Notes: generated by a model from the sequence alone, not told the origin. A stretch of DNA of 64,000 nt from an uncultured bacterium (GCA_945947905.1 CAMEZO010000002.1:1871-65870); one strand, 5' to 3'; positions 7,360-53,662 are shown, counted from the stretch's first letter. Numbers and translations: made by a program.

Positions 7360-7430
7360 AGCGGGTAGCGGGAATCGAACCCGCATGGCCAGCTTGGAAG
7401 GCTGGAGCTTTGCCATTAAGCTATACCCGC
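7360..7430 (-). tRNA. tRNA-Gly (TCC)
   Basis: Cloverleaf GCGGGTA TA GCTT AATGGCA AAGC T CCAGC CTTCCAA GCTGG CCAT GCGGG TTCGATT CCCGC TACCCGC T. U73 discriminator; CCA not encoded. Confidence 0.95.
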
Positions 7431-7470: not shown

Positions 7471-7508
7471 GCCTTTTTTTCTTTTTTTGTTCTTTTTTCA
7501 ATTTTTTC

Positions 7509-7537
7509 TTGACAATTCACCCCCTCTCCCCTATAAT
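7509..7537 (+). promoter_or_regulatory. Consensus sigma70 promoter of tRNA-Gly(CCC)
   Basis: TTGACA-17 nt-TATAAT, preceded by T-tracts. Confidence 0.9.
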
Positions 7538-7556: not shown

Positions 7557-7627
7557 GCGGGCGTCGTTCAATGGTAGGACGTGTGCTTCCCAAGCATGCG
7601 ACACGGGTTCGATTCCCGTCGCCCGTA
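7557..7627 (+). tRNA. tRNA-Gly (CCC), atypical acceptor end
   Basis: GCGGGCG TC GTTC AATGGTA GGAC G TGTGC TTCCCAA GCATG CGAC ACGGG TTCGATT CCCGT CGCCCGT A. G1-U72 and A73; no CCA. Confidence 0.85.
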
Positions 7628-16763: not shown

Positions 16764-19700
16764 CGGAGGAGCAGCCCCTTGCCGAGGCCCCGACGGCGGA
16801 GGAGGATCTCTACAGCCGCCCCCGGTCCCATACCCCCGCCGCCGACCCGCAGGCGGCCGAGGCCGATATGCCCGCCACGACGGAGGAGGAGAAGGAGCGC
16901 TACTGGCAGCGCGTGCTGACCGGTAACCCCGAAACCGTGCCCGCCGATGTCATTCGGCAGGCCTGCGCCGATGACCCCGCCGTCCCGGAGGAAGAGAATA
17001 CCTATGACCTCCTCACCGGCATCAACCGCTCCTGGTATGCCGACCACCACCCCGAAGAGAGCCGGGAGGAGCTGCTCCTGCGCTGGGCGGATGTGCGCCG
17101 CTCCCTGGCCGAGGAGCTGAACGTGGCCAACGACGAGCGCGAGGTCTTCACCGCCCTGGCCGACGAAAAGCCGATGGAGGAGCGCCGCCGTCTGGCCCGC
17201 GAGACCTACGGCCGCGCCTACCTGGCCGCTCTGCACGGCGAGGCCCGTCCCGAGCCGTCCCCCGGGGTCAGCCCCGAGGACCGGGAGCACCTGCAGAACA
17301 TCTGCCGCCGCGCCGAGCAGGATGCCGAGGAAAAGATGGCCCGCGTGCGCCCGCTGGTGGATGTGGTGGCCGACGGTATGGACGCCTTCATCGCCACGGA
17401 GCAGGAGGTGGCCCCCCCGCTGAGCCTGCGCGTCTACGGCGACAAGATGCGCCTGATGGAGGCCTGCTACCGCCTGGCCGAGATGCCGCAGGAGGACCGC
17501 GAGCTGCTGTACTATATGGCAGCGGACAAACTGCGGAAGCGCGTGAAGCCCGACTCCGCCGAGCCGGAGGGCTTCCTCTCCGCCGCCGCGCGCGCCTACA
17601 GACGCGGGTTTACGGACATCGGCACGGGGCTGGCGCAGGGCCTGGGGCACATCGGTGTGGCTACGGGGCGCAGGCTGGGCCATTTCCTGGACCTGCCCTC
17701 GGTGAACGCCGCGGCGGATACGGCGGAGGGCGGACTGCGCGTGTTGGATGAGATACGCGAGGCCGCCCAGCAGGATGTGCTGCCGCTGGACCTAGGCGAG
17801 GGGGCCGGCCTGGCAGAGCAGTACTTTGTGGAGGCCATGGGCAATGTGCCCGCCGCCGCTCTGGCCCTGTGCGGGGGCGTGGGCTTCGGGGTGCTGGGGC
17901 TCAGCGGCATGGGGCAGAGCGTGTCCGAGGCCCGCCGCCGCGCGCCGGAGAACAGCCAGGAGCTGCAACTGGCGGCCGGTGCGGTGGGCGGGTGTGTGCA
18001 GGCCGGTATCTGCGCCCTCATGGGCCGGGTGGGCGGCAAGCTGCTGGAGCAGAACCTCACCGCCTTTGCCCGCGCCCACGGACGGGGCATCGGGGCGTAT
18101 TCCCTGGCGGCCCTGCGCACCTCCGGCGGGGTCGCGGCAGAGGGCGGCAAGATGCTTGCAGCCGTCCGCTTGGGGCAGGCGGCGGAGCAGGGGGCGCAGG
18201 AGCTGGCCGCGCAGGCGGAGCAGCGGGCCTCAAATATCAACTGGCAGGAGTTCGGGGACAACCTCACGGACATCGAGGCCAACATGCGGGAGGCCGCCGT
18301 GAACCTGCCCTTCGTGCTCATGGGGGCCGGCAAGGCCTCGCTGCATCACTTCCGCTGCCGCCGCCAGCTTCTGGACCCGCAGGGCGGCGCCGGGGAATGG
18401 GGGCTGAAGCCGGAGGAGCTCGCCCGCATCGCCGCCGAGCCGGATGCCCTGCGCAGCAGCGAGATGATGCGCGAGGCCATCCGCAGGACCCCGCGTTGGA
18501 ACTCCGCGCAGAAGCTGCTGCCGCTGGCACGCCGCGCGCTCAACCTGCTCAATACGCAGCAATTTCGCCCCGCTTACAGCACGGGCGAGCTCTGCGATTT
18601 CTTGGGGATGCCCGCCTCCTTCGGGGAAGGGGTGAACCCCGCCGCCCCGGCGCCGGCGCGCCGCAGTCTGTCCGCCCGCTTGGCGCAGAATGATGAATGG
18701 ACCGCCCTCGCCCGGCCCGGGGAGGCCCTGCACCTTCCCGCCCAACTGCCGCCGCCGGAGAAGCCCCGTGCGTGCGAGGCTGCCGTGAAGCTGGCCGCGG
18801 AGGACCTGCAGATGCTCGCTTACCGCCGTATCCTGGGCGCCCAGGCGGACGGGGAGCTGGCCGCGGGAGAGGCCGCCGCCGGGAAGTCCGAGCTGATGCG
18901 GCGCGAGCTGCCGGATGCCGTGAGCCGCGCGCTGGTGCGCTGTGCGCAGGGGGAGCTGCCCGCCTATGCCCTGCGGGATCTGGAGGGCGAGCTGCTGGGG
19001 GAGCCTTCCGGCTTGCATCCCACCGCCCGCCGCTACCTGCTCCGGCGCATGGCGGCCTACTCGGACTTTGCGGCCACGGGGGCGGAGCCGCAGATGGCCA
19101 AGCAACTGGCCGTGCTGGGCGCGCGCCGCTGGGCGGAGTCGCTCTACTACCTGCTGCCGCGTTGCCCGGCGTTTCAGGAGCTGCTGGTCAGCGGTCGCTC
19201 GCCCGCGCAGGCTTTCGCGGAGCTCTCGCAGCGTTACCTCGGCAGTGCTGCCTGCGAGGTGCCGCCGCCGGCGGAGTCGAATGCCGCCGTCTTTGCGCGC
19301 TATGCCGCGCTGACCGGTAACAAGGTGGAGAGTGCCACGGGGCCGGACGGCGTGACGCGCCTGCGCGCTCGGCGTCCGGATGGTCGCTACACGCCCTGGC
19401 ACAGCACGCAGGAGCAGGTGATGAACGATGTCGCGGGCCACGCAGCGCTGATGTTCGGCGGTTATATGAGCACCGGGGGCATGGCGAACATGCGGCCCCG
19501 CGTCTTCTCCCGCTTCGATCAGCTGGGGGCGCTGGCGGTGCACGACCTGTACGGGGCGTGGTTCGGCAGCGCCACGGGGTGGGTGCCGGGCTTGCAGATC
19601 GAGCGGCTCCGGCACTCCATGCGCGGTGCCTGGCGCGGGGATGGCATCACGCCCGTCCTGCTGAAGGAGGCGCGCGGACCGCAGCAGTACACGGCGGAGC

Positions 19701-21652
19701 TCTATTCCGTCGTCAATCCCGTCTCGATGCTGCAGGCGCGCCTGGCTGCTTACTGGCGCGGGCAGATAGAGGGCGGCCACACCACCGCGGAGCAGGTCAT
19801 GGACTTCCTCGCGGCGCACGACCGCCTCACCCCGGAGGAGCGCGCGTCCACGGAGGCTATCGCGGCCCTCCGTTTCCGGCGCGAGCCGGGGGGACCGCGC
19901 ATCATGCTCCCGCGCGATTTCCCCGGTATGTACAACGAGGTCGCGGGGCGCATGGCGGAGTATATGACGGAGTACCTGGTGCAGAACCCGGACGCCGTGC
20001 CCCTGCCGGGGTCCGTGCGCCGTTGGCTGGATTACGCTCCCTTCATGCCCCCGGAGAAGCCCGCCGGGGTGACGGCCGATCACAGGAGCCGCGAGGTGGG
20101 GGAGAAGATGGAGCTGCTGGGCGTAGACTCCAACCGCCTGGCGGCCCGGAAGGTGCAGGGCTGGGCAGGGCGCGCGGAGGCTCTGCGCCGCGAGGTATCG
20201 GCGGAGGATGCGGCCTTCTTCCGGCAGCATCTGCAGGGGGCGTTCACGCTGCCGCCGGCGCAGCAGCTGGAGCAGGGCTGGGCTTACCGCTTGGGCGGGG
20301 AGCAGGCTGCCATGGCGACGGGCAGTACCCTGCGGCGCTTGCTGACGGACCCGGGGCGGGAGCTGCCCCGCCTCTCGGCGGAGGATTCGGAGCACCTCCT
20401 CCCCATGGCGGAGTCCGTGGTGCGGGCTTTCCCGACGCTCGCCGCAGAGGGCTCCGCACCGCAGGGGGCCGTGGGGCAGGCGCTGGGCAATCTGGCGGCG
20501 GTGCTGGCCGAGCACCCGGAGCTGCATGAGTACGCGCCGGCGCAGGAGCACTTCCGCGTGCACCGTATGCAGGTGCGGGATCTGCCGCCGGCGCAGGACC
20601 CCGGTACCTTCGCTACCTGGGCTACCCGGCCCGCAGGGATGAAGCCCGGTTATGCGCTGGAGGAGAACATTCCCATGCCGGAGTGGATGCGGCAGGACCC
20701 GCGGGCCATCCCGGCGCTTCATACCATGCACGCCCTGCGGATGATGACGGCGGACGGGCCGGTCTATACGCCCATGGGTATCCTGACGCCGCAGGGCTTT
20801 GTGGGCGGGCGCTACGGGCAGAATCCCGCCCCGCTTCGGGGCTGGCGCTCGCGCCCCGCGCTGGAGAATATCCTGCGCATCCTGGATGAGGCGTACGCCA
20901 CCGGCGGCGGGGAGCCCGTGCCCGTCTGCGGAGTGCGGCTGCGGGGGCTTAACCTCGCGGAGCTGGACCTGCGGCCTCTGCGGGACATCACGGTCTACAG
21001 CAGCCCGGAGACTTCGGGCGGTTGCTACCGCTTGATGCCGGGGAACCCGGAGATGCCGTCGCTGAAGGTCGCGGAGCCTTACCTCGTCAAGAGTTTCGAC
21101 GGTATCCTGTGCCGGGGTATCGGCGGCATCCCGGCCAAGGAGCTGCGCGAGTCGGCCCCGGCGCCGGAGTCGTACGCCGTGCCGCTGCGCGGGTTTGTGC
21201 GCACGCGTTTTCAGCCCTGCTCGGAGTACATGGCCTACGAGAATACCCTGGCGGCTACCACCCGCGCGGTGGATGAGATGCTGGCCCTGGGGGAGCGCTG
21301 TTACTTGGCCCCGCCGGATGCCTACCTGCGCTTCGCCTTGCAGGAGGGCATCTGCCGCCTGTGCGAGGATACGGGCTTCTCGTACTTCCTGGAGGGGCAG
21401 GGGGTGCAGGAGCTCTCGCCCGGGCAGGCGCGCGCCGTGGCCTGGGTGCGTACCATGGTGGCGGCTCTCGGCGACCCGTCGGAGGAGTCGTTCAATGCCT
21501 TCGCGCAGGCTTGCCGCAGCATCAGTGCCGATGAGGCGCTGCGGAAGCAGATGGTGGAGGTGTTCAACTGTGAGCGCGACCCCGCAGACCCGCCGCCTCC
21601 GCGTAAGCGTACCCGTAAGAAGAACCCGGATAACATTAACATGCTCTGGTGA
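16760..21652 (+). CDS. Large (1630 aa) phage-derived protein, ejection/DNA-transfer-protein-like
   Basis: ATG 16760 overlaps the upstream stop (ATGA), RBS GAAAGGAG. Central Gly/Ala-rich hydrophobic helices (AALALCGGVGFGVLGLSGMG). No catalytic motif recognised. Confidence 0.6.
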   Translation: MTEEQPLAEAPTAEEDLYSRPRSHTPAADPQAAEADMPATTEEEKERYWQRVLTGNPETVPADVIRQACADDPAVPEEENTYDLLTGINRSWYADHHPEESREELLLRWADVRRSLAEELNVANDEREVFTALADEKPMEERRRLARETYGRAYLAALHGEARPEPSPGVSPEDREHLQNICRRAEQDAEEKMARVRPLVDVVADGMDAFIATEQEVAPPLSLRVYGDKMRLMEACYRLAEMPQEDRELLYYMAADKLRKRVKPDSAEPEGFLSAAARAYRRGFTDIGTGLAQGLGHIGVATGRRLGHFLDLPSVNAAADTAEGGLRVLDEIREAAQQDVLPLDLGEGAGLAEQYFVEAMGNVPAAALALCGGVGFGVLGLSGMGQSVSEARRRAPENSQELQLAAGAVGGCVQAGICALMGRVGGKLLEQNLTAFARAHGRGIGAYSLAALRTSGGVAAEGGKMLAAVRLGQAAEQGAQELAAQAEQRASNINWQEFGDNLTDIEANMREAAVNLPFVLMGAGKASLHHFRCRRQLLDPQGGAGEWGLKPEELARIAAEPDALRSSEMMREAIRRTPRWNSAQKLLPLARRALNLLNTQQFRPAYSTGELCDFLGMPASFGEGVNPAAPAPARRSLSARLAQNDEWTALARPGEALHLPAQLPPPEKPRACEAAVKLAAEDLQMLAYRRILGAQADGELAAGEAAAGKSELMRRELPDAVSRALVRCAQGELPAYALRDLEGELLGEPSGLHPTARRYLLRRMAAYSDFAATGAEPQMAKQLAVLGARRWAESLYYLLPRCPAFQELLVSGRSPAQAFAELSQRYLGSAACEVPPPAESNAAVFARYAALTGNKVESATGPDGVTRLRARRPDGRYTPWHSTQEQVMNDVAGHAALMFGGYMSTGGMANMRPRVFSRFDQLGALAVHDLYGAWFGSATGWVPGLQIERLRHSMRGAWRGDGITPVLLKEARGPQQYTAELYSVVNPVSMLQARLAAYWRGQIEGGHTTAEQVMDFLAAHDRLTPEERASTEAIAALRFRREPGGPRIMLPRDFPGMYNEVAGRMAEYMTEYLVQNPDAVPLPGSVRRWLDYAPFMPPEKPAGVTADHRSREVGEKMELLGVDSNRLAARKVQGWAGRAEALRREVSAEDAAFFRQHLQGAFTLPPAQQLEQGWAYRLGGEQAAMATGSTLRRLLTDPGRELPRLSAEDSEHLLPMAESVVRAFPTLAAEGSAPQGAVGQALGNLAAVLAEHPELHEYAPAQEHFRVHRMQVRDLPPAQDPGTFATWATRPAGMKPGYALEENIPMPEWMRQDPRAIPALHTMHALRMMTADGPVYTPMGILTPQGFVGGRYGQNPAPLRGWRSRPALENILRILDEAYATGGGEPVPVCGVRLRGLNLAELDLRPLRDITVYSSPETSGGCYRLMPGNPEMPSLKVAEPYLVKSFDGILCRGIGGIPAKELRESAPAPESYAVPLRGFVRTRFQPCSEYMAYENTLAATTRAVDEMLALGERCYLAPPDAYLRFALQEGICRLCEDTGFSYFLEGQGVQELSPGQARAVAWVRTMVAALGDPSEESFNAFAQACRSISADEALRKQMVEVFNCERDPADPPPPRKRTRKKNPDNINMLW

Positions 21653-23247
21653 TGGATAAGCGGGCTCCCATTCGCCGCAGGCTGAACTCGCCCCTGTGGC
21701 GGCTCAATCACCTGTATTGGATCGAGAATAAGCAGGGGCAGGTGCAGCGTTTCACCATGAATGCCGCGCAGCTCCGCCTGCATCGCAACCTCTGGTCTCG
21801 CAATGCCGTGCTCAAGGCGCGTCAGTTGGGTATCTCCACCTATGTGGCGCTCTTCATGTTGGATTCCTGCCTCTTCACCCCGGGCTTTCACGCCGGTATC
21901 GTGGATAAAACGCTGCCGGATGCCGAGTTGAAGCTGGAGAAGATCCGCTTTGCCTGGGAGCACCTGGACTACCTGCCGCCGGGGGCGGGGGCGCAGGAGC
22001 GTTCGCTGGCCTACCTGGGCAGGGTGGTGAAGCGGGGCACCGGCCTGCTGCGCAGCGGGGCGGAGGTGCTGCCGGCGGATGCCCGCGAGCGTCTGGCGTT
22101 CTCCAACGGCAGCGATGTGCGCCTGGGTACCACCATGCGCGGCGGTACGCTCAACCTGCTGCATGTCTCGGAGCTGGCCCACACCTCCGTGCACGCCCCG
22201 TGGCGTGCGCGCGAGGTGCTGACGGGCGCGGTGAACAGCGTGCCGCTCTCCGGGCGCGTGATCCTGGAGAGTACGCACGAGGGCGGGCGCTACGGGGTGA
22301 ACTATGAGCTGATGCTGCAGGCGATGGAGAACCGCGCCCACCGGGTGCTCTCGCCGCTGGATTTCCGCTTCTTTTTCTTCGGGTGGTTTGATAACCCGGA
22401 GTACGCTCTGCCCGGGGCGCTGCCGGCGGGGGATGCGCTGCATGCGTACTTCGCCGGGCTGGCGGAGCAGGGGATCTGTCTGTCGCAGGCGCAGCAGGTG
22501 TGGTATGCCCGTATGGCGCGCACTATGGGGGGCGCTATGCGGCAGGAGTACCCTTCCTCGCCGGAGGAGGCGTTCAGCGTCGGTAATGAGGGTGCCATCT
22601 ACGCCGCGCAGCTCATGCGCCTGCGGGAGTCCGGGCGCATCGGGGCGGATTTCGCGGTGCATCCCTTCGCGCCGCTCTACACGGCCTGGGACCTGGGGAT
22701 GAGCGACCACACGGCTATCTGGCTCGTGCAGGCCATCGGGGGGCAGGTCTACTGGCTGCACCACTACGCGGCCAATCAGCTGCCCGTGGAGCACTATGCC
22801 GCCAAGATCCGCGAGTGGGAGCAGTCCTACGGCCGCTGCGAGGCGCACTTCCTGCCGCATGATGCCGCCCACCGCGACCCGCACGGGCAGTCCTATGTGG
22901 AGTGCCTGGCGCGGCTCGGGATCACAGCGGTGCGGGTGGTGCCGCGTACCACGGATGTGTGGCGCGGTATCAATGACCTGCGCCGCCTGCTGGTGAACAG
23001 CTGGTTCCACCGGAACACGTTGGAGGAGCGCTCCGACCCGGCCGGCCGCCGCGTGCCTTCCGGGCTCGCCTGCCTGGAGAATTACCGCACCGCGCCCCCC
23101 TCGCCCTCCGGTTCCTTCCGCGAGGCTCCCCTGCACAATGAGTTCTCCCACAGCGCCGACGCCGCCCGCACCTTCGCCGAGGCCGCCTCCCACGGCCTCC
23201 TCACCCCTCTCTCCTCCCGCCGCCCCTCCCTCGCTCGCATGCAGTGA
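21652..23247 (+). CDS. terL: Phage terminase large subunit
   Basis: RLNHLYWI N-terminus, Walker A LKARQLGIST, Walker B LHVSE, LESTHEG coupling motif, QEYP, nuclease AWDLGMSDHTAIW and HSADAAR. TGATG overlap with the upstream gene. Confidence 0.92.
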   Translation: MDKRAPIRRRLNSPLWRLNHLYWIENKQGQVQRFTMNAAQLRLHRNLWSRNAVLKARQLGISTYVALFMLDSCLFTPGFHAGIVDKTLPDAELKLEKIRFAWEHLDYLPPGAGAQERSLAYLGRVVKRGTGLLRSGAEVLPADARERLAFSNGSDVRLGTTMRGGTLNLLHVSELAHTSVHAPWRAREVLTGAVNSVPLSGRVILESTHEGGRYGVNYELMLQAMENRAHRVLSPLDFRFFFFGWFDNPEYALPGALPAGDALHAYFAGLAEQGICLSQAQQVWYARMARTMGGAMRQEYPSSPEEAFSVGNEGAIYAAQLMRLRESGRIGADFAVHPFAPLYTAWDLGMSDHTAIWLVQAIGGQVYWLHHYAANQLPVEHYAAKIREWEQSYGRCEAHFLPHDAAHRDPHGQSYVECLARLGITAVRVVPRTTDVWRGINDLRRLLVNSWFHRNTLEERSDPAGRRVPSGLACLENYRTAPPSPSGSFREAPLHNEFSHSADAARTFAEAASHGLLTPLSSRRPSLARMQ

Positions 23248-23286: not shown

Positions 23287-23669
23287 GCTGACCGCGGAAG
23301 GGAAGGTGCATCAGCAGAGCCGCGCGAGGGCGTATGAGAGACTTCACACCGCCGTGCTGATAGGAACCGAGAAGTTGCTGACCGCGAAAAAACAGACTTC
23401 ACGCCGCTGGGGTGGGAGAGAGCGAGAAGATGCTGACCGCGGAATAAAAGGAATTCTTGGAGAGTCGGTGGCCTGCATAGCTCGGTTCAGACTTCACGCC
23501 GCCGGGGTGGTAGGTCCCTTAGTTATTTTAATAAATAAATGATGCTGCCTACTATGACTTTGCTCTGAAGTCTTGCTGAAGTCCCGAAGGCCAATCAGTC
23601 TCCGAAAATTCCTTTTATTCCGCGGTCCTTTTCCACTCGCCCACGACAGATACAGCGGGATGAAGTCTC
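23287..23669. repeat. Composite palindromic repeat, copy 1 (left arm around the GxxExxY gene)
   Basis: Motif A CAGACTTCAYRCCGC at 23338, 23393, 23488 and inverted at 23655. Motif B GACCGCGGAATAAAAGGAATT at 23432 and inverted at ~23600-23627. Inverted core at 23508-23600. Confidence 0.9.
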
Positions 23670-23695
23670 CCATTCCCTCTGCCCGGCTCCGCTTA

Positions 23696-24127
23696 TTAAG
23701 GATGGGGGATTTGCTCACCGGCCGATTTTGCTGCACCTTTGGTACATACAACACGACGCCATTCGCAACCCCCTTGTTTGCCGAAATTGAACAGAAGCCC
23801 GACCTGTAAGTGACTTGCTTTAAGGTAGTTGTAAACCTGGTTCTTGTGGGCGTCAACGAGTTCAGAGACAGCCTTCAATTCAACAATGATCTTGTCGAAG
23901 CACACGAAATCCGCCTTGAATAAAGGCTCCAGAATGCTATCCTTGTAATGGATTTTCAACAAGGCCTCCCGCTGAAAGGGGATTCCCCTTGCCTTGAATT
24001 CACTGGCAAGCGCATGCTGGTACACAACCTCCGAAAAGCCATGTCCCAAGACTTCATATACCTCAAGAGCAGCCCCTATAATGGCACCGGTCATGCTTGA
24101 ATCAATGATTTTTGAGTACTTCGACAT
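23696..24127 (-). CDS. GxxExxY family protein (PD-(D/E)XK nuclease superfamily)
   Basis: GHGFSEVVYQHAL signature, ADFVCFDKIIVELKA (D...ExK), QVYNYLKA and GLLFNFG. Visibly AT-richer than the host genes. Confidence 0.92.
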   Translation of the reverse strand: MSKYSKIIDSSMTGAIIGAALEVYEVLGHGFSEVVYQHALASEFKARGIPFQREALLKIHYKDSILEPLFKADFVCFDKIIVELKAVSELVDAHKNQVYNYLKASHLQVGLLFNFGKQGGCEWRRVVCTKGAAKSAGEQIPHP

Positions 24128-24242
24128 GCCTCTATCTCATACTACAGTTCATTCCTCAAGTCAAGACCAAACCACCTTATTTCCCCTTTTTTTATCACTT
24201 ACCTACCATGCAGCCCCCTCTCCGCCCGTCTCCTCCAATACG

Positions 24243-24761
24243 GCGGCATGAAGTCTGTACTGAGCTATGCAGGCCACCGACTCTCCAAAAATTCCCTTTA
24301 TTCCGCGGTCATCCTCTTCTCGCTCTCTATTGTCACAGCGGCATGAAGTCTGCACCAAGCTATGCACGGTTCCGATTTTTTCCAAGCTCCCCCTTCATCC
24401 CGCTGTAGCTGTCGTGGGCGAGTGGAAAAGGACCGCGGAATGAAAGGAATTCTCGGAAACTGTCTATCATGCTATTCACAGTCAAGACGTCGGAGCATAT
24501 TCATTGTAGGTAGCTTCGGATTTTAATTAAAACAACTCAGGGACCTACCATCCCTGCGGCATGAAGTCTGCACCGAGCTATGCAGGCCATCGACTCTCCA
24601 AAAATTCCTTTTATTCCGCGGTCATCCTCTTCTCGCTCTCTATTGCCACAGCGGCATGAAGTCTGCAAGGAGCCAAGCATGTCAATCAGTTTCCGTATCC
24701 TTCCTGAAATTCTGCGTTCTGAAAACTTCAGCTCTCTCCCACCCCGGCGGTATGCAGTCTG
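24243..24761. repeat. Composite palindromic repeat, copy 2, plus an inner 95-bp tandem
   Basis: Inverted motif A at 24243, 24338, 24556, 24651, 24747 (95-96-bp steps within each run). Core at 24460-24550. 24393-24665 is the reverse complement of 23393-23665. Confidence 0.9.
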
Positions 24762-24789
24762 TTTTTTTCGGACGTTTTCAGAAATACGC

Positions 24790-24818
24790 TTGACTTTCTA
24801 CCCGTTTGAAGCTACAAT
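24790..24818 (+). promoter_or_regulatory. Promoter of the large PEP-CTERM gene
   Basis: TTGACT-17 nt-TACAAT. Confidence 0.7.
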
Positions 24819-24848
24819 TTCCACGGCCCATTGTGGCCTGATGTCGTC

Positions 24849-27800
24849 ATGAAACTCCGTCTTCCTCTCCTCCTCCGCTTGGCTTTGTTGTCTACTGCTG
24901 CCGCCTACACGCTCGGCAGCGGCTGCCTCTTCGCTGATGATGCGCCCGCCGATGCCGCGCAGGACGACCCCATCGCCGAGGCCGTGGACGAGGAAGAAAG
25001 CGACAGCCCCGCCATCGGCTTCGAGGGCTATACCGAGTCTCAGTTGGTGGATATTCAGTCATCCGACTCCGCAGGCTCCGTCATCCGGCAGATGCTGGAG
25101 AACTCCACCACGGGCGCGGTTGCCAACGTGGGAACCACCTCCTCCACCTCCAACGGCGCCACCACCGCCGCCGAATCCCCCGCGCTCACCCTCACGGCCC
25201 CCGCCGAGCCCGTGACCGACACCTCCCTGACCACCTCCACCCTTTCCGATTCCGCCGGCGAGGGGGCTGTCGCCCCCTTCTTCAGCGCTGAAGAAGCCGC
25301 CGCTCTCGTTGTCGCAAGCCCTGCAACGAGTACACCCTCCCTTAAAAACACCTCAACAGCCACCCTCTCCTCGTCCGACGCATCGGACGAAACTACCTCT
25401 TCCGTGGCTGCTAACGGTGCCTCCTCCTCCATCGCCTCCGTAGGCTCTGCCGGCGGCGCCGGCGCCTCTTCCGGTGGTGGTTCTGCTTCCTACTCCATCA
25501 CCTCCTCGGCCCCCGATAGCTCTTCCTCCCTCGTCATCACCACCCCCACCGACGACACCTCCTCCGACCCCATCGCCGACGACACCTCCTCCGACCCCAT
25601 CGCCGAGGATGTCCTCGAAGACTCCACCACCGAGGACACCACCACCACTTCCACCCTCTCGGATTCTTCTGCCTCCACCCTTGCCGGCACATCCTCTACC
25701 TCCGCCACCATCCGCACCCTCCCGGCGTTGAAACTGCTGGGCGCGACGGAGACATCGACTCAGGGAACAGTTAAGGTTGATGGCGTTGATAGACCATCCG
25801 GTGAAAAATCCGATAAAGGTGTGCAGTTTTTGTATGGCAAGATGGGTGGTAGCGGAGATGATGTCAATATCATTTATTTACATAATGACCCGTCAACCTA
25901 TCCCAGCGTTGTCGAAGTAGACGCTAATTCGTTTTATATTTGCCCGAATAACAAAAGTCCCAAGTTCAGTATAGGGGCTCTCAAAACTGATACCCCTGCG
26001 GCTACTGTTAAAATCCAAAATAACGAGTGGAGCGGGAATGAAAATTCTACGCTGACCCTCACTCTGGATACTCTTTCCGTCAACGGCTCGGCTTCATTGG
26101 AAGTCAACCAGACTCGCACCGGCGCAATTACCGTTTCCATAGGTAAGGTGGCGAATAGCTCAACGGAGTCCACAACGGGTCCTCTTCTCACCAGCGTCAA
26201 AAACTCCGGAACGCTTAATCTGGGTACAAACGCCTCCGGAGAAGGGGAGTCAAAAGTTACAGCGTCGTCCATTTCCATTGGCTCTCTGACGAACAGCGGC
26301 ACGATGACTCTGAATGGAGAGACGACCATTACGGAGAAGCTGACAAACACCGGTACGTTGACGGTAAATAGTGGCGCGACTCTTGTCGGAAAGATTGATT
26401 CAACAGGGACACTGAAGTTGGATGGTGTATGGGATCTTCGCGGTCAAGATAATATGATTAAAGATGGTACCGACCGTCTCGAGACACAGCTTAGAAAGAT
26501 CAATGCGGGTTCCGGAACTGTTAAGGTTAAGGCTGACGGTGCGTATGTTTTCATGCAAGATTATGCCTTGGGTGGACTGTCGCTGGAATTTAGCGGTACC
26601 AGTACCAGTGTCGCTGAGATTAACGGCTATGGATATAAAGACGGTAGTTCCGAGGTCACTGTTGGTGTCGGTTCCCAAGTTAAGACAGGAGGGAATCTGC
26701 GCATTGAATCCAAAGCTACCCTCCTTGTATCCGGAGGAACTGTAAATTGCGGCGGAACCTTGCAGTTAGGGCACGAAGAGACTGGTACAAATGGCAAAAA
26801 TTACGGTCGTTTGACTGTTGCGGAGGGTGGTCACTTGACTGCGGCGAGTATAGGGCAAACGGGAAATCAATATTCCGTGGTCAAGGATGGGAATTTGTTT
26901 ACCATGACAGGAGGAAAATTGACTATTACCTCTGCGATAAATGATGCAATATCGAAGGTTTATACTGTGATTTCCGGGGGTACACTCGATACGTCGCAGG
27001 CCGCTTGGGGAATTAAAGGTAATGGTGACGGGAGTGTGAGTGTGGGCGGTGTAACTGTTTCCGATGCCTATACGACAGAGGAGGGGACGACAGCCTACAG
27101 CCGCAACGCCCTGACATTGACCGGAGCGAACATTACCGGCAACATCAGCTTGGCAGGGAAGGCTGACTTGAACCTGAAGAACGTGACGGTCACCGGGGAG
27201 GATGTCACAGTGGGGGGCGATAACCGAACGATCAGTGTGGCCGAGGGCAGTCTGACTGTTGAGAAGTCTGTTACGACAAAGGGGCTTTTGCAGGTTCAGG
27301 AGAATGCAACCCTGAAACTCAACAACGCGGATACGACGGTGACCACCATCACGAACCGGGACGGTTCTACGGAATCTGCCGCGATTACCGGTGGTAGTGT
27401 GTCGATGACATATGATACTGCTGATAATAAGGGCGTCATCTCCGGGGCGACAATCAGCAATGCTGCAATTGATGTGTCACAGCGGAGTGTGTTGGCGCTT
27501 TCGAACTCTACGCTCGATAGCGGAGTAATTACCCTGAACAGCAATGCTGTGCTCGAGTTGGCCGCTTCAGTCAACGGGACTCTTACCGGTAGTATCGTGT
27601 CTGCTGAAAATGCTACGGAAACGACGCTTCGGGTGAGTGGCTCCGCCGTTGAGACCTTGATCGGGACGGTGAATGTGGCTGCAACGGAGGTTCAATCCGG
27701 TACATTAACCCTGAGCGGCGATAGCATTGCGCACAGCCTGGGGGCTGTGACGGTGGGGAGCAACGCTGCACTGAACGTTGAAGGAAGTTCGCAGACCCTG

Positions 27801-29900
27801 AACTTGAGTGCTGTGGTGCAGAACCAAGGAACCCTGAGCCTCGGTGGTGTTTCTACATTGACATTCACGGTGTCGGATGTGTTCGATAGCTTCTCGTACA
27901 CAGATACAGTAACCGGAGCCGGGGCGAAGAATGGGTTTATCGACCGGTATTGGCTCATTCGGAACAGCGGAAGCGGGACGATGAGTGGACTTGCAGTTTC
28001 GGCGGTGACCGTCAACAGTACTTCCAAGAATGCTATATCTGAAACAACCGGTCTGTATGCCGCAGTGGAGGCAGCAGATCTTGGGTTGACGGATGGTACC
28101 GACCTGAACAACATCTACGTTGTCAACGAGGGCAATGTGGTCTACGATGCAGACTCGAATAGTTCCGGAGCTTCCGCCGTGAAGCAGCTTTGGCTGACGG
28201 GTGGCACGCTGGCATTGGATCAGTCCGATATTAAGTCCGGGGTGGGTGTGCATGTGAAGCAAGACAGCACGGTGAATATCGGAGCTGATCGCACCTTGAC
28301 GGATTCACAGGTGGCCTCTGTTGCGAGCGGGAAAACGCTGACTCTGACGGGTTCGGGAACCTATAGTTTGGCAGTTGATCAAATAGGCGAGACCGCATTG
28401 TTGACATCGGGGGTCGCATTGGCCACGGGTGAAAGCGGTTTCACGGGGACGGTATTGTTGAACAAGGGCACGACCTTGAACGGAACGGATTTGAGCGCGT
28501 TGACCAACGGCAGTTACTCCTCCGTGACAATGAACGGCGTGTCCGGGACGCTGAAATCCGGTGACATCAGCACGAATTTGGTGTTGAAGAACCATGTTGA
28601 TACCGGAAGTGCCGATATTGTAGCTTTGTCGCTCGAAGGAGGTGGAGCGAATATCAATTTCAACGGGGCTATCAGCGGTACCGGAGAGATGAAGATCGCT
28701 CCGAGCGATGCCGCCGCCGAGAATACTCTTATTTTCTCCGGTGATGTAAGCGGATGGACGGGTAAGTTGGAGGTATTCAAAGGTATAGCGAACGTGACAT
28801 TTACCGGAGAGGCCAAGGAGATCAATGCCTACGTTGCTGATACGTTTAGTGATTCTGTGCTGAATATGGTAGTCGATGCCTCGGAGGGCAGGAGTTTCAC
28901 TCAGGGCATTTCGGCGGATACCTTGCGGTTGACAAATGGAACGGAAGGCAAGGTTGTCGATGTGTCAGGTGGTTCCTATATTGTTTCTGCGAAGACAGAC
29001 CTGACAGAGAGTAATGTCATTCTGCAAGTCAAAGGAACAGGGTCTGAGGATAGTAATCTGTATAGCTCTCTTACAGAGTTGGCCTCTGATGGTTCCTCCG
29101 GCATTAATATCTCCGATAGTGAAAAGACTTTGACGAAGATTCGGACTAATACACAAGATGCTTCAAGCTCCGGAAACGCAACTCTTTCATCCTGCACGTT
29201 TACTTATAATAATTCCACCGCAAAGATCTCGGGATCTACCATCGACCGGGCGGTCATTGATGTGGTGAACGGCAGCACCTTGGAATTGAGCGGTGTGGTG
29301 CTCACGAATTCCTGTTGGGTGCGTGATGATGACGCGAGTACCCCGGCGCCTACCGGGAAATTGGTTTTAGACGGGGTGGAGCTGCAGATGGCTAAGGGGA
29401 CCGCGAGCACGGAGGATGGCTCGGGGGTGGCCCTGACGCTCACCGGCGGCACGACGGCAGCTAAGAATGCTGATGGTTCGGCGAAGACGCTTACCGGAAA
29501 GGTCTATGTGATGGATCTCACCCAGATCTCCGATTTTGCCACTATCTCGGGCAGCGGGAATGGGCTGACCCTGAACTTCGATACATACGGGAATGGCTTT
29601 GCAGAGCTTTATGAGACCCTGAAGGGCTATGATTATGTCGCTGTGAAGTTCAGCGATGATGTGCTCTCGGTAGACTTCGAGACCCTGAAAGTGACCTCAA
29701 AGATTACAAACGGCCAGAATGCCGAGGCAACATCGCAGGGCTACTATTACAATAACAACGGCGCCAGCGGTGTGGTGGTTTACTTCGATGCTATCGCTCT
29801 GCCGGAGCCGACGACGAGCACTCTGGGCCTGCTGGCCTTGGCGGCCCTCTGCGCACGGCGCCGTCGCTCCCGCACCCGCGCGCACGCCGAGCATGCATAG
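24849..29900 (+). CDS. Large PEP-CTERM surface protein (Ser/Thr-rich linker plus beta-helix-like passenger), 1683 aa
   Basis: Leader MKLRLPLLLRLALLS, S/T/D-rich stalk, Gly/Thr/Ser beta-rich repeats, C-terminal LPEPTTSTLGLLALAALCARRRR. Confidence 0.88.
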   Translation: MKLRLPLLLRLALLSTAAAYTLGSGCLFADDAPADAAQDDPIAEAVDEEESDSPAIGFEGYTESQLVDIQSSDSAGSVIRQMLENSTTGAVANVGTTSSTSNGATTAAESPALTLTAPAEPVTDTSLTTSTLSDSAGEGAVAPFFSAEEAAALVVASPATSTPSLKNTSTATLSSSDASDETTSSVAANGASSSIASVGSAGGAGASSGGGSASYSITSSAPDSSSSLVITTPTDDTSSDPIADDTSSDPIAEDVLEDSTTEDTTTTSTLSDSSASTLAGTSSTSATIRTLPALKLLGATETSTQGTVKVDGVDRPSGEKSDKGVQFLYGKMGGSGDDVNIIYLHNDPSTYPSVVEVDANSFYICPNNKSPKFSIGALKTDTPAATVKIQNNEWSGNENSTLTLTLDTLSVNGSASLEVNQTRTGAITVSIGKVANSSTESTTGPLLTSVKNSGTLNLGTNASGEGESKVTASSISIGSLTNSGTMTLNGETTITEKLTNTGTLTVNSGATLVGKIDSTGTLKLDGVWDLRGQDNMIKDGTDRLETQLRKINAGSGTVKVKADGAYVFMQDYALGGLSLEFSGTSTSVAEINGYGYKDGSSEVTVGVGSQVKTGGNLRIESKATLLVSGGTVNCGGTLQLGHEETGTNGKNYGRLTVAEGGHLTAASIGQTGNQYSVVKDGNLFTMTGGKLTITSAINDAISKVYTVISGGTLDTSQAAWGIKGNGDGSVSVGGVTVSDAYTTEEGTTAYSRNALTLTGANITGNISLAGKADLNLKNVTVTGEDVTVGGDNRTISVAEGSLTVEKSVTTKGLLQVQENATLKLNNADTTVTTITNRDGSTESAAITGGSVSMTYDTADNKGVISGATISNAAIDVSQRSVLALSNSTLDSGVITLNSNAVLELAASVNGTLTGSIVSAENATETTLRVSGSAVETLIGTVNVAATEVQSGTLTLSGDSIAHSLGAVTVGSNAALNVEGSSQTLNLSAVVQNQGTLSLGGVSTLTFTVSDVFDSFSYTDTVTGAGAKNGFIDRYWLIRNSGSGTMSGLAVSAVTVNSTSKNAISETTGLYAAVEAADLGLTDGTDLNNIYVVNEGNVVYDADSNSSGASAVKQLWLTGGTLALDQSDIKSGVGVHVKQDSTVNIGADRTLTDSQVASVASGKTLTLTGSGTYSLAVDQIGETALLTSGVALATGESGFTGTVLLNKGTTLNGTDLSALTNGSYSSVTMNGVSGTLKSGDISTNLVLKNHVDTGSADIVALSLEGGGANINFNGAISGTGEMKIAPSDAAAENTLIFSGDVSGWTGKLEVFKGIANVTFTGEAKEINAYVADTFSDSVLNMVVDASEGRSFTQGISADTLRLTNGTEGKVVDVSGGSYIVSAKTDLTESNVILQVKGTGSEDSNLYSSLTELASDGSSGINISDSEKTLTKIRTNTQDASSSGNATLSSCTFTYNNSTAKISGSTIDRAVIDVVNGSTLELSGVVLTNSCWVRDDDASTPAPTGKLVLDGVELQMAKGTASTEDGSGVALTLTGGTTAAKNADGSAKTLTGKVYVMDLTQISDFATISGSGNGLTLNFDTYGNGFAELYETLKGYDYVAVKFSDDVLSVDFETLKVTSKITNGQNAEATSQGYYYNNNGASGVVVYFDAIALPEPTTSTLGLLALAALCARRRRSRTRAHAEHA
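25549..25602 (+). repeat. 27-bp in-frame tandem duplication in the stalk
   Basis: CCGACGACACCTCCTCCGACCCCATCG x2 (DDTSSDPIA x2). Confidence 0.9.
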
Positions 29901-30375
29901 CCTTGAGCAGACTTCACACCGCTGTGGTAGAAGCTCCCGAGAAGTTTCTGATCGCGGAATAAAGGGAATTTTCGGAGAGGGAGAGGCATGCATAGCCTTG
30001 AGCAGACTTCATACCGCCGTAGTGGGAGAACCCGAGAGGTTGCTGACCGCGGAATAAAAGGAATTTTCGGAGACTGTATATCATGCTGCTCTCAGTCAAG
30101 ACGTCAGAGCATATTCATTGTAGGTAGCTTCAGAATTTTATTAAAATAACCAAGGAGCCTACCACCCCGGCGGCATGCAGTCTGTACCAAGCCAAGCATA
30201 CCACCGACTCTCCAAAAATTCCTTTTATTCCGCGGTCCTCCAACTCCCGCTTCCAACCATCCCGGCGGCATGCAGTCTGCATCGCGCTAAGCACGCTGTC
30301 AACTCTCCCAAAAATTCTTTTTATTCCGCGGTCCTTTAACTCCCGCTTCCTACCACCCCGGCGGCATGAAGTCTG
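29891..30375. repeat. Composite palindromic repeat, copy 3
   Basis: Motif A at 29908 and 30003, motif B at ~29948 and 30042, core at 30072-30164, inverted motif A at 30170, 30265, 30361 (95/96-bp steps). Confidence 0.9.
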
Positions 30376-30430
30376 CCACCCCTTTGCTCCTTCTGCGTTC
30401 GGTTTTTGAGGGGGCGGTGGAGATTTTCTC

Positions 30431-30459
30431 TTTACAGCGAGGCGGGGCGGGGGTATAAT
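30431..30459 (+). promoter_or_regulatory. Promoter of sulP
   Basis: TTTACA-17 nt-TATAAT. Confidence 0.75.
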
Positions 30460-30478: not shown

Positions 30479-32188
30479 ATGCATTATCCCAGCCTCATCA
30501 GCACGCTCAAGAACTACGACAAGAAGAAATTTACTGCGGATTTAACGGCCGGGATCACGGTAGGCGTGGTAGCGCTGCCGCTGGCGATAGCCTTTGCGAT
30601 TGCCTGCGGCGTGAAAGAAATCACCCCCGCCTCCGGCCTGATCACGGCGGTGGTGGCCGGCTTCATGATCTCCCTGTTAGGCGGAAGCAAGTTCCAGATC
30701 GGCGGCCCGACGGGCGCCTTCGTGGTCCTGATCGCCGGCGTTGCGGGCAGCTACGGCATCCAAGGCCTGATCCTCTGCACCCTGATGGCAGGCATCTTCC
30801 TCATCCTCTTCGGCCTGGCGCGATTGGGCGCCCTCATCAAATACATCCCGTACCCCGTCACGACCGGCTTCACCTCCGGCATCGCCGTCACGATCCTGAC
30901 CACCCAGGTACGCGACCTGCTGGGCCTGACGATCGAAGGCGAGATACCCGCCGCCTTCATCCCCCGCTGGGGATGTTATTTAGAAAACCTCGGCAGCATC
31001 AACCCCTGGGCGGTCGGCCTCTCCGCGCTGACCCTGGCCGTCATCCTCCTGACCCGCCGCCTGTTCCCGCGCGCCCCCTTCATGCTCGTGGGCATGCTGG
31101 TCGCCACCGCCCTCTGCGCCTGCTTCGACCTCCCCGTCGAGACCATCCAATCCCGCTTCGGCGAGCTGCCCACGGGCCTCCCCGAGCTGCGGATGCCCGA
31201 GTTTGAATGGGCCGCGCTGCCCGCCCTGGTCAAGCCCGCCTTCATCATCGCCCTGCTCGCCGCCATCGAATCCCTGCTCAGCGCCAGCGTGGCGGACGGC
31301 ATGACCGGCAGCCGCCACCACCCGAACACCGAACTCATCGCCCAAGGCGCGGGCAACATCGCCTCCGCCCTCTTCGGCGGCATCCCCGCCACCGGTGCGA
31401 TTGCCCGCACCGCCACCAACATCCGCGCCGGCGCCAAGAGCCCCGTCTCCGGCCTGGTGCACGCCGTCACCCTGCTGCTCATCCTCCTGCTCGCCGGCCG
31501 CTACGCCGGCATGGTACCGCTCGCCGCGCTGGGGAGCATCCTGCTGCTGGTATGTTGGAACATGGCGGAAGTCGACACCTTCCTGCACCTGCTGAAAGGC
31601 CCGCGCCGGGATGCTGCGGTGCTCTGCATCACCTTCATCCTCACCGTGCTGGTCGACCTGGTGGTGGCCGTGGAAGTCGGCGTGGTGCTGGCGTCCCTCC
31701 TCTTCATCGGCCGCATGGCACAGATCAGCAACGTGGCCTCCATCAGCGCCGAGATCATGGGCGAAGACCCCGACGAGATACCCGCCCGCTCCCGCTACCT
31801 GCGCTATGTGCCGGATAACGTTGAAATCTTCGACGTGCAAGGCCCCTTCTTCTTCGGCGCGGTGGAGCAGTTCAAGGACATCGTCTTCAAGACCCTGGAG
31901 CACAACATCGAATACGTGTTACTGCGCCTGCGCCTGGTTCCCGCGCTGGATGCCACGGGCCTGCATGTGCTTGAGGACTTCCTGGAGTACTGCCACCGGC
32001 ACAACATCACCCTGCTGCTCTGCGGTGTGCAACCCCAGCCGATGAAAGTCATCAACCGCGACTTCCCCTTCCTGAACGACCTGCACAAAGAAAACATCTG
32101 TGAAGACATCGACGCCGCCCTGGCCCGCATTCAGGAGCTGGAGACGCAGAAGATGCTCGTGCATCTGCACGCCCCCGCCGAGCCCTGA
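30479..32188 (+). CDS. SulP/SLC26 family anion or dicarboxylate transporter with STAS domain
   Basis: DLTAGITVGVVALPLAIAFA, GGSKFQIGGPTGAF, ESLLSA, GGIPATGAIART and a C-terminal STAS (FFFGA, LDATG). Confidence 0.93.
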   Translation: MHYPSLISTLKNYDKKKFTADLTAGITVGVVALPLAIAFAIACGVKEITPASGLITAVVAGFMISLLGGSKFQIGGPTGAFVVLIAGVAGSYGIQGLILCTLMAGIFLILFGLARLGALIKYIPYPVTTGFTSGIAVTILTTQVRDLLGLTIEGEIPAAFIPRWGCYLENLGSINPWAVGLSALTLAVILLTRRLFPRAPFMLVGMLVATALCACFDLPVETIQSRFGELPTGLPELRMPEFEWAALPALVKPAFIIALLAAIESLLSASVADGMTGSRHHPNTELIAQGAGNIASALFGGIPATGAIARTATNIRAGAKSPVSGLVHAVTLLLILLLAGRYAGMVPLAALGSILLLVCWNMAEVDTFLHLLKGPRRDAAVLCITFILTVLVDLVVAVEVGVVLASLLFIGRMAQISNVASISAEIMGEDPDEIPARSRYLRYVPDNVEIFDVQGPFFFGAVEQFKDIVFKTLEHNIEYVLLRLRLVPALDATGLHVLEDFLEYCHRHNITLLLCGVQPQPMKVINRDFPFLNDLHKENICEDIDAALARIQELETQKMLVHLHAPAEP

Positions 32189-53417: not shown

Positions 53418-53662
53418 CAAATTGAGTGTACGGCATTTTGAATGCTGTAGCAAGCCAAAAATGCGGATTTCCCTCATTTTTTCAGCACTTTTTTCTGGCC
53501 TTCTGCCGAAAAAAAAGGAGAGGGCAAAAACACCCAAATTCAACGCAACTCGTTGAGCATCAACGAGTTATATGCCCTATGCATTCTGAATGCTGTAGGC
53601 ACGCTCCCTCCGTCGCATTCCAAGTGAGGTGCCTTATCGGAGGAATGCCTCACCCGATGGAA

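Follow-up and report, generated by a model that had tools for sequence, protein, structure and literature searches.

What are the intergenic arrays of short repeated motifs in a 64-kb stretch of DNA from an uncultured bacterium (the window), and do they act on the genes beside them or merely spread between them? The first-pass annotation had proposed an undescribed BIME-like family, a structured-RNA array or a protein-binding lattice, built from 95-bp units of two motifs, A and B, around a ~90-bp core. We searched the window for motif A (CAGACTTCAYRCCGC) and obtained 14 matches at ≤2 mismatches (0.54 expected), all within 23338-30375 and close to the ~15 copies claimed. Motif B gave nine matches at ≤3 mismatches (0 expected); with degenerate extra copies at 23290-23306, 23370-23386 and about 24694-24730, this agrees with the ~11 full or partial copies described. 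Neither motif occurred again in the rest of the window. The A-to-A steps of 95-96 bp were exact as listed, and TRF returned periods of 95 and 96 at 29891-30073 and 30161-30376. The core was recovered in three copies, one of them inverted, as claimed, and the palindrome attributed to its second copy, TTTTAATTAAAA, sits at 24522-24533. The motifs, the 95/96-bp period and the three cores are far above chance. They lie in the intergenic regions 23287-23670, 24243-24762 and 29891-30376, in keeping with the claim of a non-coding repeat, and the number of units per side varies in the window as had been stated. The elements in these regions (E1 to E3) and their neighbours are:

23287-23670, minus strand: element E1, between a 532-aa ORF and the GxxExxY gene; core reversed (C-); degenerate outer units 23287-23392, then A+ 23393, B+ 23435, A+ 23488, core, B- 23607, A- 23655
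23435-23627, minus strand: E1 module within inverted repeats, 193 bp; 29-nt repeats 23435-23463 and 23599-23627
23528-23555, plus strand: E1 promoter candidate TTAATA-16-TACTAT, rightward, to the 3' end of the GxxExxY gene
23696-24127, minus strand: GxxExxY / PDDEXK_3 nuclease-family gene, low GC, inverted elements on both sides
24243-24762, plus strand: element E2, between the GxxExxY gene and the 1683-aa PEP-CTERM-type gene; reverse unit 24243-24352, degenerate A+ near 24393, B+ 24431, core (C+), A- 24556, B- 24603, A- 24651, degenerate B- near 24694-24730, A- 24747
24431-24623, plus strand: E2 module within inverted repeats, 193 bp
24503-24532, minus strand: E2 promoter candidate TTTTAA-18-TACAAT, leftward, to the start of the GxxExxY gene
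24790-24818, plus strand: the giant gene's own promoter-like site TTGACT-17-TACAAT, outside E2
24831-29900, plus strand: giant Thr/Ser-rich surface protein gene with PEP-CTERM-like C-terminus, low GC
29891-30376, plus strand: element E3, between the 1683-aa PEP-CTERM-type gene and the SulP transporter gene; two forward units (A+ 29908, B+ 29950, A+ 30003, B+ 30045), core (C+), A- 30170, B- 30217, A- 30265, B- 30313, A- 30361
30045-30237, plus strand: E3 module within inverted repeats, 193 bp; 29-nt repeats 30045-30073 and 30209-30237
30117-30144, minus strand: E3 promoter candidate TTAATA-16-TACAAT
30479-32188, plus strand: SulP/STAS transporter gene; own promoter-like site 30431-30459

E2 lies upstream and E3 downstream of the giant PEP-CTERM-type gene, the middle part of which is highly variable among strains; on its right, E3 is anchored by the SulP/STAS gene in every strain. 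The two 29-nt repeats of E3 differ at one position, and its promoter candidate has a weak hairpin and T-run ahead of it on the same strand (30168-30154).

A repeat family of one pig-gut species

The arrays belong to a non-coding repeat family that is spread through the genome of an uncultured pig-gut Akkermansia species. A single genome, the sister MAG SFDX01, contributed 42 of 45 loci with exact B, and its contig SFDX01000048 is ~95% identical to the window; the 35 core modules found in this MAG bear out a genome-wide distribution. In pig-gut DNA runs, read as k=31 Logan contigs, which break at B, the repeat k-mers reached roughly 40-50x the depth of the flanks. Among about 185,000 species representatives searched, none besides this species had more than single matches, and sister species lack the family at their rplI and SulP loci. 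The family is confined to one species. Its layout is BIME-like, no Rfam family matched (see below) and we found no description of it in the literature. To this extent, the suggestion of an undescribed, composite palindromic family is supported.

Most copies are solitary, between core genes and without cargo. Many lie after the terminator of the upstream gene and before the downstream gene's own promoter, with rplI and rplT among the neighbours. At least 11 of the 42 MAG loci, as well as E2 and E3, adjoin surface-protein genes (autotransporter or giant PEP-CTERM-type), and in many of these cases the element follows the gene instead of preceding it. Crude gene calls placed 2 of 32 copies in divergent promoter regions and about 10 of 32 between convergent genes, where a promoter would have no obvious target. 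No recombinase gene recurred beside the elements among the ORFs of the loci and the best 25 Pfam families listed; this, the convergent copies and those between a terminator and a gene's own promoter speak against the promoter-switch reading discussed below. The ORFs of the 45 loci included no autonomous IS with shared termini, and the single IS seen (locus L051) has 23-bp termini unrelated to the family. A tblastn search with an approximate RAYT query gave no match in 498 kb around the copies, nor was RAYT among the best 25 Pfam families listed.

Module anatomy and conservation

Two parts of the first-pass description had to be revised. The core is not an entity of its own but the junction of two mirror-image arms, and the element is polar because the left half of the core is a diverged A unit (CAAGACGTCGGAGCA). 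Likewise, the key unit is not the 95-bp repeat but the B...B span of 182-195 bp, which is the best conserved and functionally bounded part. In this module, a polar core of ~135 bp is bracketed by two near-invariant, near-perfect inverted repeats of ~29 nt, which are extended forms of motif B (GACCGCGGAATRAARGGAATTTTYGGAGA). We found 38 B+..B- modules of 182-195 bp (35 in the SFDX01 MAG and three in the window). Mean column conservation was 0.94-0.95 in the B arms vs 0.80 in the interior. The interiors have a mean identity of 70% and are homologous copies, with subfamilies and recombinant copies present; some at unlinked loci are 94-98% identical, and identity falls to family level (~62%) exactly outside B. 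Most copies have one unit per side only, and the outer units fade out with no sharp boundary. Around B..B and the outermost A motifs, we found no direct repeat above chance level that could be a target-site duplication.

Judged by its sequence, one strand of the core has a conserved candidate for a sigma-70-like promoter. The motif, TTGATA-N16-TAC(T/C/A)(A/G)T, occupies a fixed position in about 27 of 37 copies, a count that includes a 9-nt-deletion subfamily with TTGATG at equal spacing, and a weak terminator-like hairpin lies ahead of it. The opposite strand of the core had no comparable promoter-like site in the 37 copies.

Could the arrays act as RNA, for instance as an sRNA array, a long-hairpin terminator or an mRNA stabiliser cut to ~95-nt pieces? 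Folded in full, the element gives a highly stable hairpin (-211.8 kcal/mol, z = -12.3), elements are found in metatranscriptome contigs, and many are located at gene 3' ends. However, the consensus fold consisted of the invariant B/B' stem only, with compensatory change in 3 of 44 pairs; arm complementarity was 0.626 within the same element vs 0.615 between elements (p=0.09), and the candidate local stem showed no covariation. In metatranscriptome contigs, which are without strand direction, the repeats had 5-8x the flank depth vs up to roughly 40-50x in DNA, so that RNA depth per copy is below that of the flanking genes. Many copies lie beyond the upstream gene's own terminator, and no curated covariance model of Rfam matched at gathering score or at E≤1, bar one chance lncRNA match at E=0.88. 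We regard a structured RNA as highly improbable, and the corresponding proposal of the first-pass annotation is not upheld. A REP-type hairpin motif was likewise rejected, since candidate stems lacked covariation and the arms of one element do not co-vary.

The conservation of B as primary sequence points to a protein site, and to this extent the earlier idea of a protein-binding lattice survives. In its full form, A and B would be spaced about nine helical turns apart and bind a nucleoid protein, gyrase or an IHF-like factor, as BIMEs do, to organise DNA or insulate transcription units. The fixed period of 95/96 bp, the conservation of B and parts of A without structural covariation, and the position of the elements between transcription units are consistent with such a host-recruited array. 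Yet one unit per side, as in most copies, makes no lattice, and unit number is free to vary among strains; inspection of the consensus revealed no IHF-type site at the centre, and the polar core, the promoter-like motif and the inversions would be left unexplained. A lattice is therefore very unlikely, and the anatomy fits recombinase inverted repeats around a polar promoter segment, known from Akkermansia invertons, better than helical phasing.

Rearrangement among strains

What the first-pass annotation had missed is that inversions, indels and synteny breaks among strains cluster at this locus. Synteny among strains breaks at the elements. Across five assemblies, both orientations of the ~960-bp GxxExxY segment, which has inverted units at its ends, were seen. 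The MAG and L127 carry it inverted, L217 lacks it, and in pig-gut DNA runs the contig depth of its gene was 6-30% of that of the flanks. E1 has 1, 3 or 4 left units across three strains. A 216-bp stretch (about 24400-24615) around the E2 module is present in the window and missing in strain L046. Deletions recurred between similar 10-11-mers of A+ and B-, and breakpoints had no single fixed position.

Inversion within a module was examined at the orthologous locus of L124 and the MAG (L044). The right repeat and its flank are collinear. The half of the interior with the promoter candidate lies in opposite orientations in the two strains and reaches ~97% identity only when one copy is reverse-complemented; as the non-promoter half is only ~70% identical, this is not a clean recent flip. 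The cores of E2 and E3 had one orientation in every assembly examined (5-6 for E3). Because the MAG assembly collapsed some palindromic cores, an orientation taken from a single contig carries some risk.

At one site, the cargo between two direct elements differs among three strains: the window has none, L046 has ORFs of 216 aa and 66 aa, and the MAG has an insert of 931 bp. This low-GC cargo, and the element-bracketed GxxExxY gene that is present, absent or inverted among strains, would suit attC-like or shufflon-like sites at which a dedicated recombinase captures and exchanges small accessory genes. Such a role is nevertheless very improbable for the family, given mostly solitary copies between core genes without cargo, the lack of an adjacent integrase in our searches and breakpoints at no one fixed position. 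An integron attC or cassette array was rejected on the same dispersal of copies and missing integrase.

Proposed promoter switch or spreading repeat

We consider it most likely, with about as much confidence as doubt, that the modules are invertible promoter switches (invertons) with flanking amplified arm units, and that the elements mark sites of genome rearrangement beside surface-protein genes. The B repeats would be the binding sites of a trans-acting, site-specific recombinase that turns the core segment round, so that its promoter faces now one flank, now the other. The modules would be this species' counterpart of the Akkermansia muciniphila CGGATTTNAAATCCG invertons beside PEP-CTERM, autotransporter and capsule genes. 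The flanking A-B units would have arisen by tandem amplification of arm segments, supplying further B sites in mirror orientation. Where direct copies recombine, 95-bp units and whole cassettes could be gained or lost; where inverted copies do so, larger segments could flip; and exchange between copies may create near-identical interiors ending exactly at B. From these patterns we infer the recombinase, the promoter activity and flipping within the population.

That the interiors are homologous copies (mean identity 70%), unlike those of the A. muciniphila invertons retrieved, looks more like a spreading repeat. An alternative, possible if somewhat unlikely, is a selfish, non-autonomous palindromic repeat (BIME/NIME/REPIN/MITE-like) that is dispersed without any dedicated role as a switch. 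It would spread to harmless intergenic sites by a trans-acting enzyme or gene conversion, its arrays would lengthen and shorten by slippage or unequal exchange, and homologous recombination or template switching between copies would incidentally produce the inversions, deletions and synteny breaks. Full-length homology with subfamilies and recombinants, near-identical copies at unlinked loci, restriction to one species, fading outer units and the recurrent deletions between A+ and B- all agree with it, as do positions after terminators and before promoters, housekeeping genes included, and the scarcity of copies in divergent promoter regions. Against it, no target-site duplication was found, and the ~0.5 Mb surrounding the copies showed no related transposase, RAYT or autonomous element. 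Moreover, the uneven conservation (B near-invariant, promoter-like motif one-sided) needs selection on sequence, an inversion of 195 bp between 29-nt repeats is hard to achieve by RecA-type recombination, and size, layout and neighbours are as in proven Akkermansia invertons.

A combination of the switch and spreading readings, which we hold to be doubtful, is a self-propagating inverton, that is, a promoter-carrying invertible module that is itself a dispersed, copy-spreading element and has its recombinase sites amplified in 95-bp tandem units. If true, it would be a shufflon-like multi-site switch in which one trans-acting recombinase flips promoters, alters unit number, exchanges cores from locus to locus and inserts or deletes gene cassettes by surface-protein genes, and it would link selfish REP/MITE-like repeats to phase-variation switches.

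BIMEs of enterobacteria and NIMEs of Neisseria (dRS3/RS arrays) are, like the arrays described here, intergenic mosaics of short conserved motifs with semi-conserved linkers; they are species-specific, vary in copy number, often lie at gene 3' ends and are tied to rearrangements and variable genes. Here, in contrast, single motifs are not palindromic, units are tandem within an arm and mirrored at the centre only rather than alternating, the polar core has a promoter-like site, and ~0.5 Mb around the copies revealed no partner of RAYT or IS110 type. REPINs and MITEs (e.g. Correia elements) share terminal inverted repeats, a short non-coding interior, dozens of dispersed copies and subfamilies, and can supply promoters and hairpins. 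They differ from our family, for which no target-site duplication, sharp outer ends, autonomous relative or RAYT was found, and the 135-nt interior exceeds the typical REPIN spacer. A MITE with target-site duplication and sharp ends was rejected, as no flanking direct repeat was present and outer units decay gradually. Shufflons (R64 Rci) and the Mpi-controlled promoters of Bacteroides resemble the locus in having several site copies in both orientations at one locus and segments in alternative orientations. Mpi serves many dispersed sites with one recombinase, which is conceivable here too; shufflons, however, consist of coding segments beside a recombinase gene, whereas the segments here are non-coding and no adjacent recombinase was found.

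A. muciniphila has at least 32 invertons with a common inverted-repeat motif; the closest known systems are the repeat motif of Jiang et al. 2019, 'inverton group 138' and the cps1 inverton, which was validated by PCR and qPCR. One example, 191 bp in total and adjoining autotransporter genes, switches its orientation in vivo, and the neighbourhood of these invertons is enriched in PEP-CTERM genes. Those we retrieved were 182-191 bp long, with the repeat CGGATTTCAAATCCG and mutually unrelated interiors. This repeat and CGGATTTNAAATCCG (quoted as CGGATT..AATCCG) were absent in ~0.6 Mb of the pig-gut species, window included, and B has only CGGAWT in common with the known Akkermansia motif. The repeat here is 29 nt (GACCGCGGAATAAAAGGAATTTTCGGAGA) instead of a quasi-palindrome of 15-17 nt, the interiors are homologous copies, and 0-4 tandem 95-bp units with extra repeat copies and A motifs replace unique flanks. 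Flipping within populations is proven in A. muciniphila, whereas here we infer it. Both families belong to the same genus, place an inverted-repeat pair containing CGGAWT around ~150 bp with a promoter-like motif inside (182-195 bp here vs 182-191 bp), occur in tens of copies per genome and neighbour PEP-CTERM, autotransporter and surface-structure genes. In size, layout and neighbours, the modules match the experimentally shown invertons of A. muciniphila.

Motif arrays and their distribution

The short motifs A and B together form a unit of ~95 bp. Searched across the window, motif A gave 14 matches at ≤2 mismatches (0.54 expected) and motif B nine at ≤3 mismatches (0 expected), all of them within 23338-30375. 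TRF reported periods of 95 and 96 bp, and a repeat finder recovered three cores together with the large inverted relationships, confirming the first-pass annotation, which had described A and B copies at this period around three cores. The resulting arrays E1, E2 and E3, each with a core between mirror-image arms, are all intergenic:

23287-23670: E1, after a 532-aa ORF
23696-24127, minus strand: GxxExxY/PDDEXK_3 (nuclease-family) gene
24243-24762: E2, between the GxxExxY/PDDEXK_3 gene and the 1683-aa giant gene
24831-29900: giant gene, 1683 aa, Thr/Ser-rich, with a PEP-CTERM-like anchor at its end
29891-30376: E3, between the giant gene and a SulP/STAS transporter gene

CRISPR was ruled out by the semi-conserved spacers and the 95-bp period, and a DNA-uptake sequence by the restriction of motif A to the elements.

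Several other features of the window were recorded. The stretch 16589-23247 is very GC-rich (0.69-0.73 vs about 0.62 elsewhere) and holds ORFs of 1687 and 532 aa, both without Pfam matches, the shorter being terminase-like in appearance (by eye only). With E1 starting right at its end, this stretch may represent a prophage or island boundary. The giant gene has an atypically low GC content and a weak GC3 bias. Two tRNA genes, at 7360-7430 (minus strand) and 7557-7627 (plus strand), diverge around a T-rich spacer (7474-7510). Low-GC blocks (0.46-0.51) at 50715-55156 and 57155-58795, with long minus-strand ORFs of 942, 497 and 546 aa lacking Pfam matches, possibly form another accessory island; a metallo-beta-lactamase-fold gene lies on one side of them and a CstA gene on the other.

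A scan of about 185,000 species, each represented by a single genome, for exact motif B gave 45 loci, 42 of which came from the sister genome SFDX01 (the MAG), labelled 'Akkermansia muciniphila W0P28.008'; the repeat is thus not confined to one locus. The window is ~95% identical to one SFDX01 contig. Outside the species cluster the nearest match of SulP is just 80% identical, indicating that the host is a separate Akkermansia species, which was found in pig-gut and faecal metagenomes. A relaxed B pattern gave multiple matches in SFDX01 alone and chance single ones in other species genomes, and the JGI metagenome scan yielded 0 matches to motif B. In pig-gut DNA runs, repeat k-mers reached up to roughly 40-50x flank depth. 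We conclude that the repeat family is genome-wide and species-restricted.

Rfam returned no match at gathering score and, at E≤1, one chance lncRNA match (E=0.88); blastn against phage and plasmid collections gave no match, and a description of such repeats in Akkermansia was not found in the literature. The family is real and, as initially supposed, previously undescribed.

Anatomy and conservation of the elements

Motif mapping revealed one grammar across all loci, (A+ -42- B+)n, core, A- -47- B- (-48- A- ...), with 38 modules of 182-195 bp, each delimited by a forward B and the reverse B that follows it. The module alignment shows that each element as a whole forms a single long, imperfect palindrome. 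Its core is polar because the inner arm on the left consists of a systematically diverged A unit (CAAGACGTCGGAGCA). The consensus of the 95-nt unit is CAGACTTCATGCCGCCGTGGTGGTAGAAAGCGAGAGGATGCTGACCGCGGAATAAAAGGAATTTTTGGAGAGTCGGTGGCCTGCTTAGCTCGGTT. The outer units form a second type that is more degenerate, and array ends fade gradually with no sharp boundary. Motif A (ACTTCATGCCGC) is similar to the outer end of reverse B (CTTTCATTCCGC), e.g. window 24393-24403 vs 24605-24623, and each A-B unit is therefore itself a weak inverted repeat.

The two 29-nt B arms hardly vary, with a mean column conservation of 0.94-0.95 vs 0.80 in the interior. Module interiors have a mean identity of 70%. For several pairs from unlinked loci the value is 94-98%, and this high identity extends precisely as far as the outer edge of each B. 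A structured-RNA array, proposed at first pass, was not borne out: the RNAalifold consensus contains the invariant B/B' stem only, with compensatory change in 3 of 44 pairs, the arms do not co-vary within an element (similarity 0.626 vs 0.615 between elements, p=0.09), and the local stem GGYGGCNTG/CAYRCCGCC lacks covariation. The very stable hairpin predicted for the whole element follows trivially from its inverted repeat. Elements were present in metatranscriptome contigs, but at only 5-8x flank depth, which gives no sign of abundant element RNAs. The near-invariance of B without structural covariation indicates that the primary sequence is what is conserved, the pattern that a protein-binding site would show and a structured RNA would not.

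One core strand carries TTGATA-N16-TAC(T/C/A)(A/G)T at a fixed position in about 27 of 37 copies, and the opposite strand has no comparable promoter-like site. In a 9-nt-deletion subfamily, TTGATG takes the place of TTGATA at unchanged spacing. The core -10 hexamer is similar to those before real genes of the host (e.g. GCTACAAT, GGTATAAT), and a weak hairpin followed by a T-run lies ahead of the promoter candidate on the same strand. In the window the TTGATA-type motif positions are:

23528-23555, plus strand: promoter candidate in E1
24503-24532, minus strand: promoter candidate in E2
30117-30144, minus strand: promoter candidate in E3

Rearrangements among strains

We compared the ENA contig L124 with contig L044 of the MAG at an orthologous locus, where their flanks are 97% identical. 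On the right, repeat and flank align collinearly; within the interior, the promoter-bearing half is ~97% identical only as reverse complement, and identity in the remaining half is just ~70%. Inverted units bound a segment of ~960 bp with the core of E1 and the GxxExxY gene. This segment is oriented alike in the window, L046 and L124, is reversed in the MAG and L127, and is absent in L217 (L-numbers denote contigs of the MAG or of other strains' assemblies). The contig of this segment was at 30% and 6% of flank depth in two pig-gut DNA runs. The GxxExxY/PDDEXK_3 gene itself is low in GC and a polymorphic cassette (either orientation or absent), occurring also in L023, L046, L124 and L127; with only one copy near elements, the nuclease was ruled out as mobiliser.

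The number of units varies, as had been suggested from the window alone: the left side of E1 has 1, 3 or 4 units in three strains. A 216-bp stretch with the E2 module is absent in L046, the junction lying in CCGC common to A+ and the end of B-, and a 59-62-nt remnant upstream of SulP in L051-L053 has the same junction type. Two independent deletions have their junction in a 10-11-mer common to A and reverse B. The right side of E3 is constant among strains and its left neighbour is variable.

Left neighbour of E3 in the window and other assemblies
Window: giant gene
L046: 1.1-kb cargo between two direct elements
MAG: another cargo
L051-L053: T6SS cluster and IS (IS in L051 and L052)
L226: Ldh gene

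L051-L053, a ~94.5%-identical lineage, carry the T6SS cluster (Hcp, ImpE, TssE/F/G, ClpV) instead of the phage-like region and the giant gene. The IS (DDE_Tnp_1) upstream of SulP in L051 and L052 has 23-bp inverted termini; that of L051 was ruled out as parent element, its termini being unrelated. The middle part of the giant gene is hypervariable (strain homologues of 1114-2545 aa, aligned over just 17-52% of the query). Element pairs of the MAG bracket small gene sets (L018 2500-4800 and L014 2750-4750), one pair enclosing a phage-like replication-organiser ORF and a DnaC/IstB-like ATPase ORF, the other two paralogous small secreted proteins.

Target-site duplications were found neither around B..B nor at the outermost A motifs. 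No ORF family recurred near elements, and there was no transposase among 148 ORFs near elements (Pfam, top 25 families listed). A RAYT-like query of approximate sequence, taken as a lead only, had no match in 498 kb. By these searches the repeat family does not look like a classical transposon.

In pig-gut DNA runs, k=31 Logan contigs end at B. The public MAG contig L039 and L127, from the same sample and otherwise 100% identical, differ in two palindromic cores, 74 and 57 nt shorter in L039. The shortened cores and the many contigs ending at B point to assembly collapse or breaks at the elements, so that MAGs of this species need careful reading around them.

Interpretation and comparison with known invertons

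Our best-supported reading, to which we give an even chance, is that the family consists of promoter modules with inverted repeats, putatively invertible by a trans-acting recombinase. An Akkermansia-type inverton (a promoter segment flipped between inverted repeats) with a different repeat would have multiplied and gained tandem arm units. The main rival, which we consider somewhat unlikely, is a selfish BIME/REPIN-like repeat with the rearrangements as by-products. E2 and E3 have an identical orientation in every assembly examined (5-6 for E3). Many copies, some of them next to rplI and rplT, have an upstream terminator on one side and, on the other, the promoter belonging to the downstream gene. 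By crude gene calls, of 32 copies 10 fall between convergent genes and just 2 into divergent regions. The rplI and SulP loci of sister species have no element, the rplI locus no inverted repeat either. These observations, together with the copied interiors, fit a spreading, largely neutral repeat. The switch and selfish-repeat readings are not mutually exclusive; their combination, a self-propagating inverton, seems to us improbable.

Akkermansia is a widely studied gut commensal, the surface variation of which is known to be controlled by invertons. In the pig-gut species the elements coincide with inversions, cassette gain or loss and synteny breaks next to giant PEP-CTERM and autotransporter genes and the T6SS locus, and thus probably drive surface and genome diversity at the strain level. 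If the promoter-module reading is true, the switches of a sister species rely on another inverted repeat, presumably with another recombinase, and switch modules are able to behave as a proliferating repeat with amplified recombination sites.

A. muciniphila has at least 32 invertons with one common inverted-repeat motif, and PEP-CTERM genes are enriched near this group. One of these invertons, 191 bp in total and adjacent to two autotransporter genes, switches its orientation in mice; the inverton upstream of capsule locus cps1 has been experimentally verified. We retrieved the cps1 inverton via its published primer, and its repeat then gave three more. All four are 182-191 bp long and bounded by CGGATTTCAAATCCG, with unique flanks. 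The pig-gut modules are the same in size, layout and kind of neighbours, autotransporter or giant PEP-CTERM-type genes adjoining at least 11 of the 42 MAG loci. In contrast, the repeat differs, being a 29-nt sequence in the pig-gut species and the CGGATTTNAAATCCG repeat in certain other Akkermansia species; the known A. muciniphila repeat was absent from 0.6 Mb of the pig-gut species. The interiors differ as well: they are copies of one sequence in the pig-gut family, whereas those of the retrieved A. muciniphila invertons are mutually unrelated.
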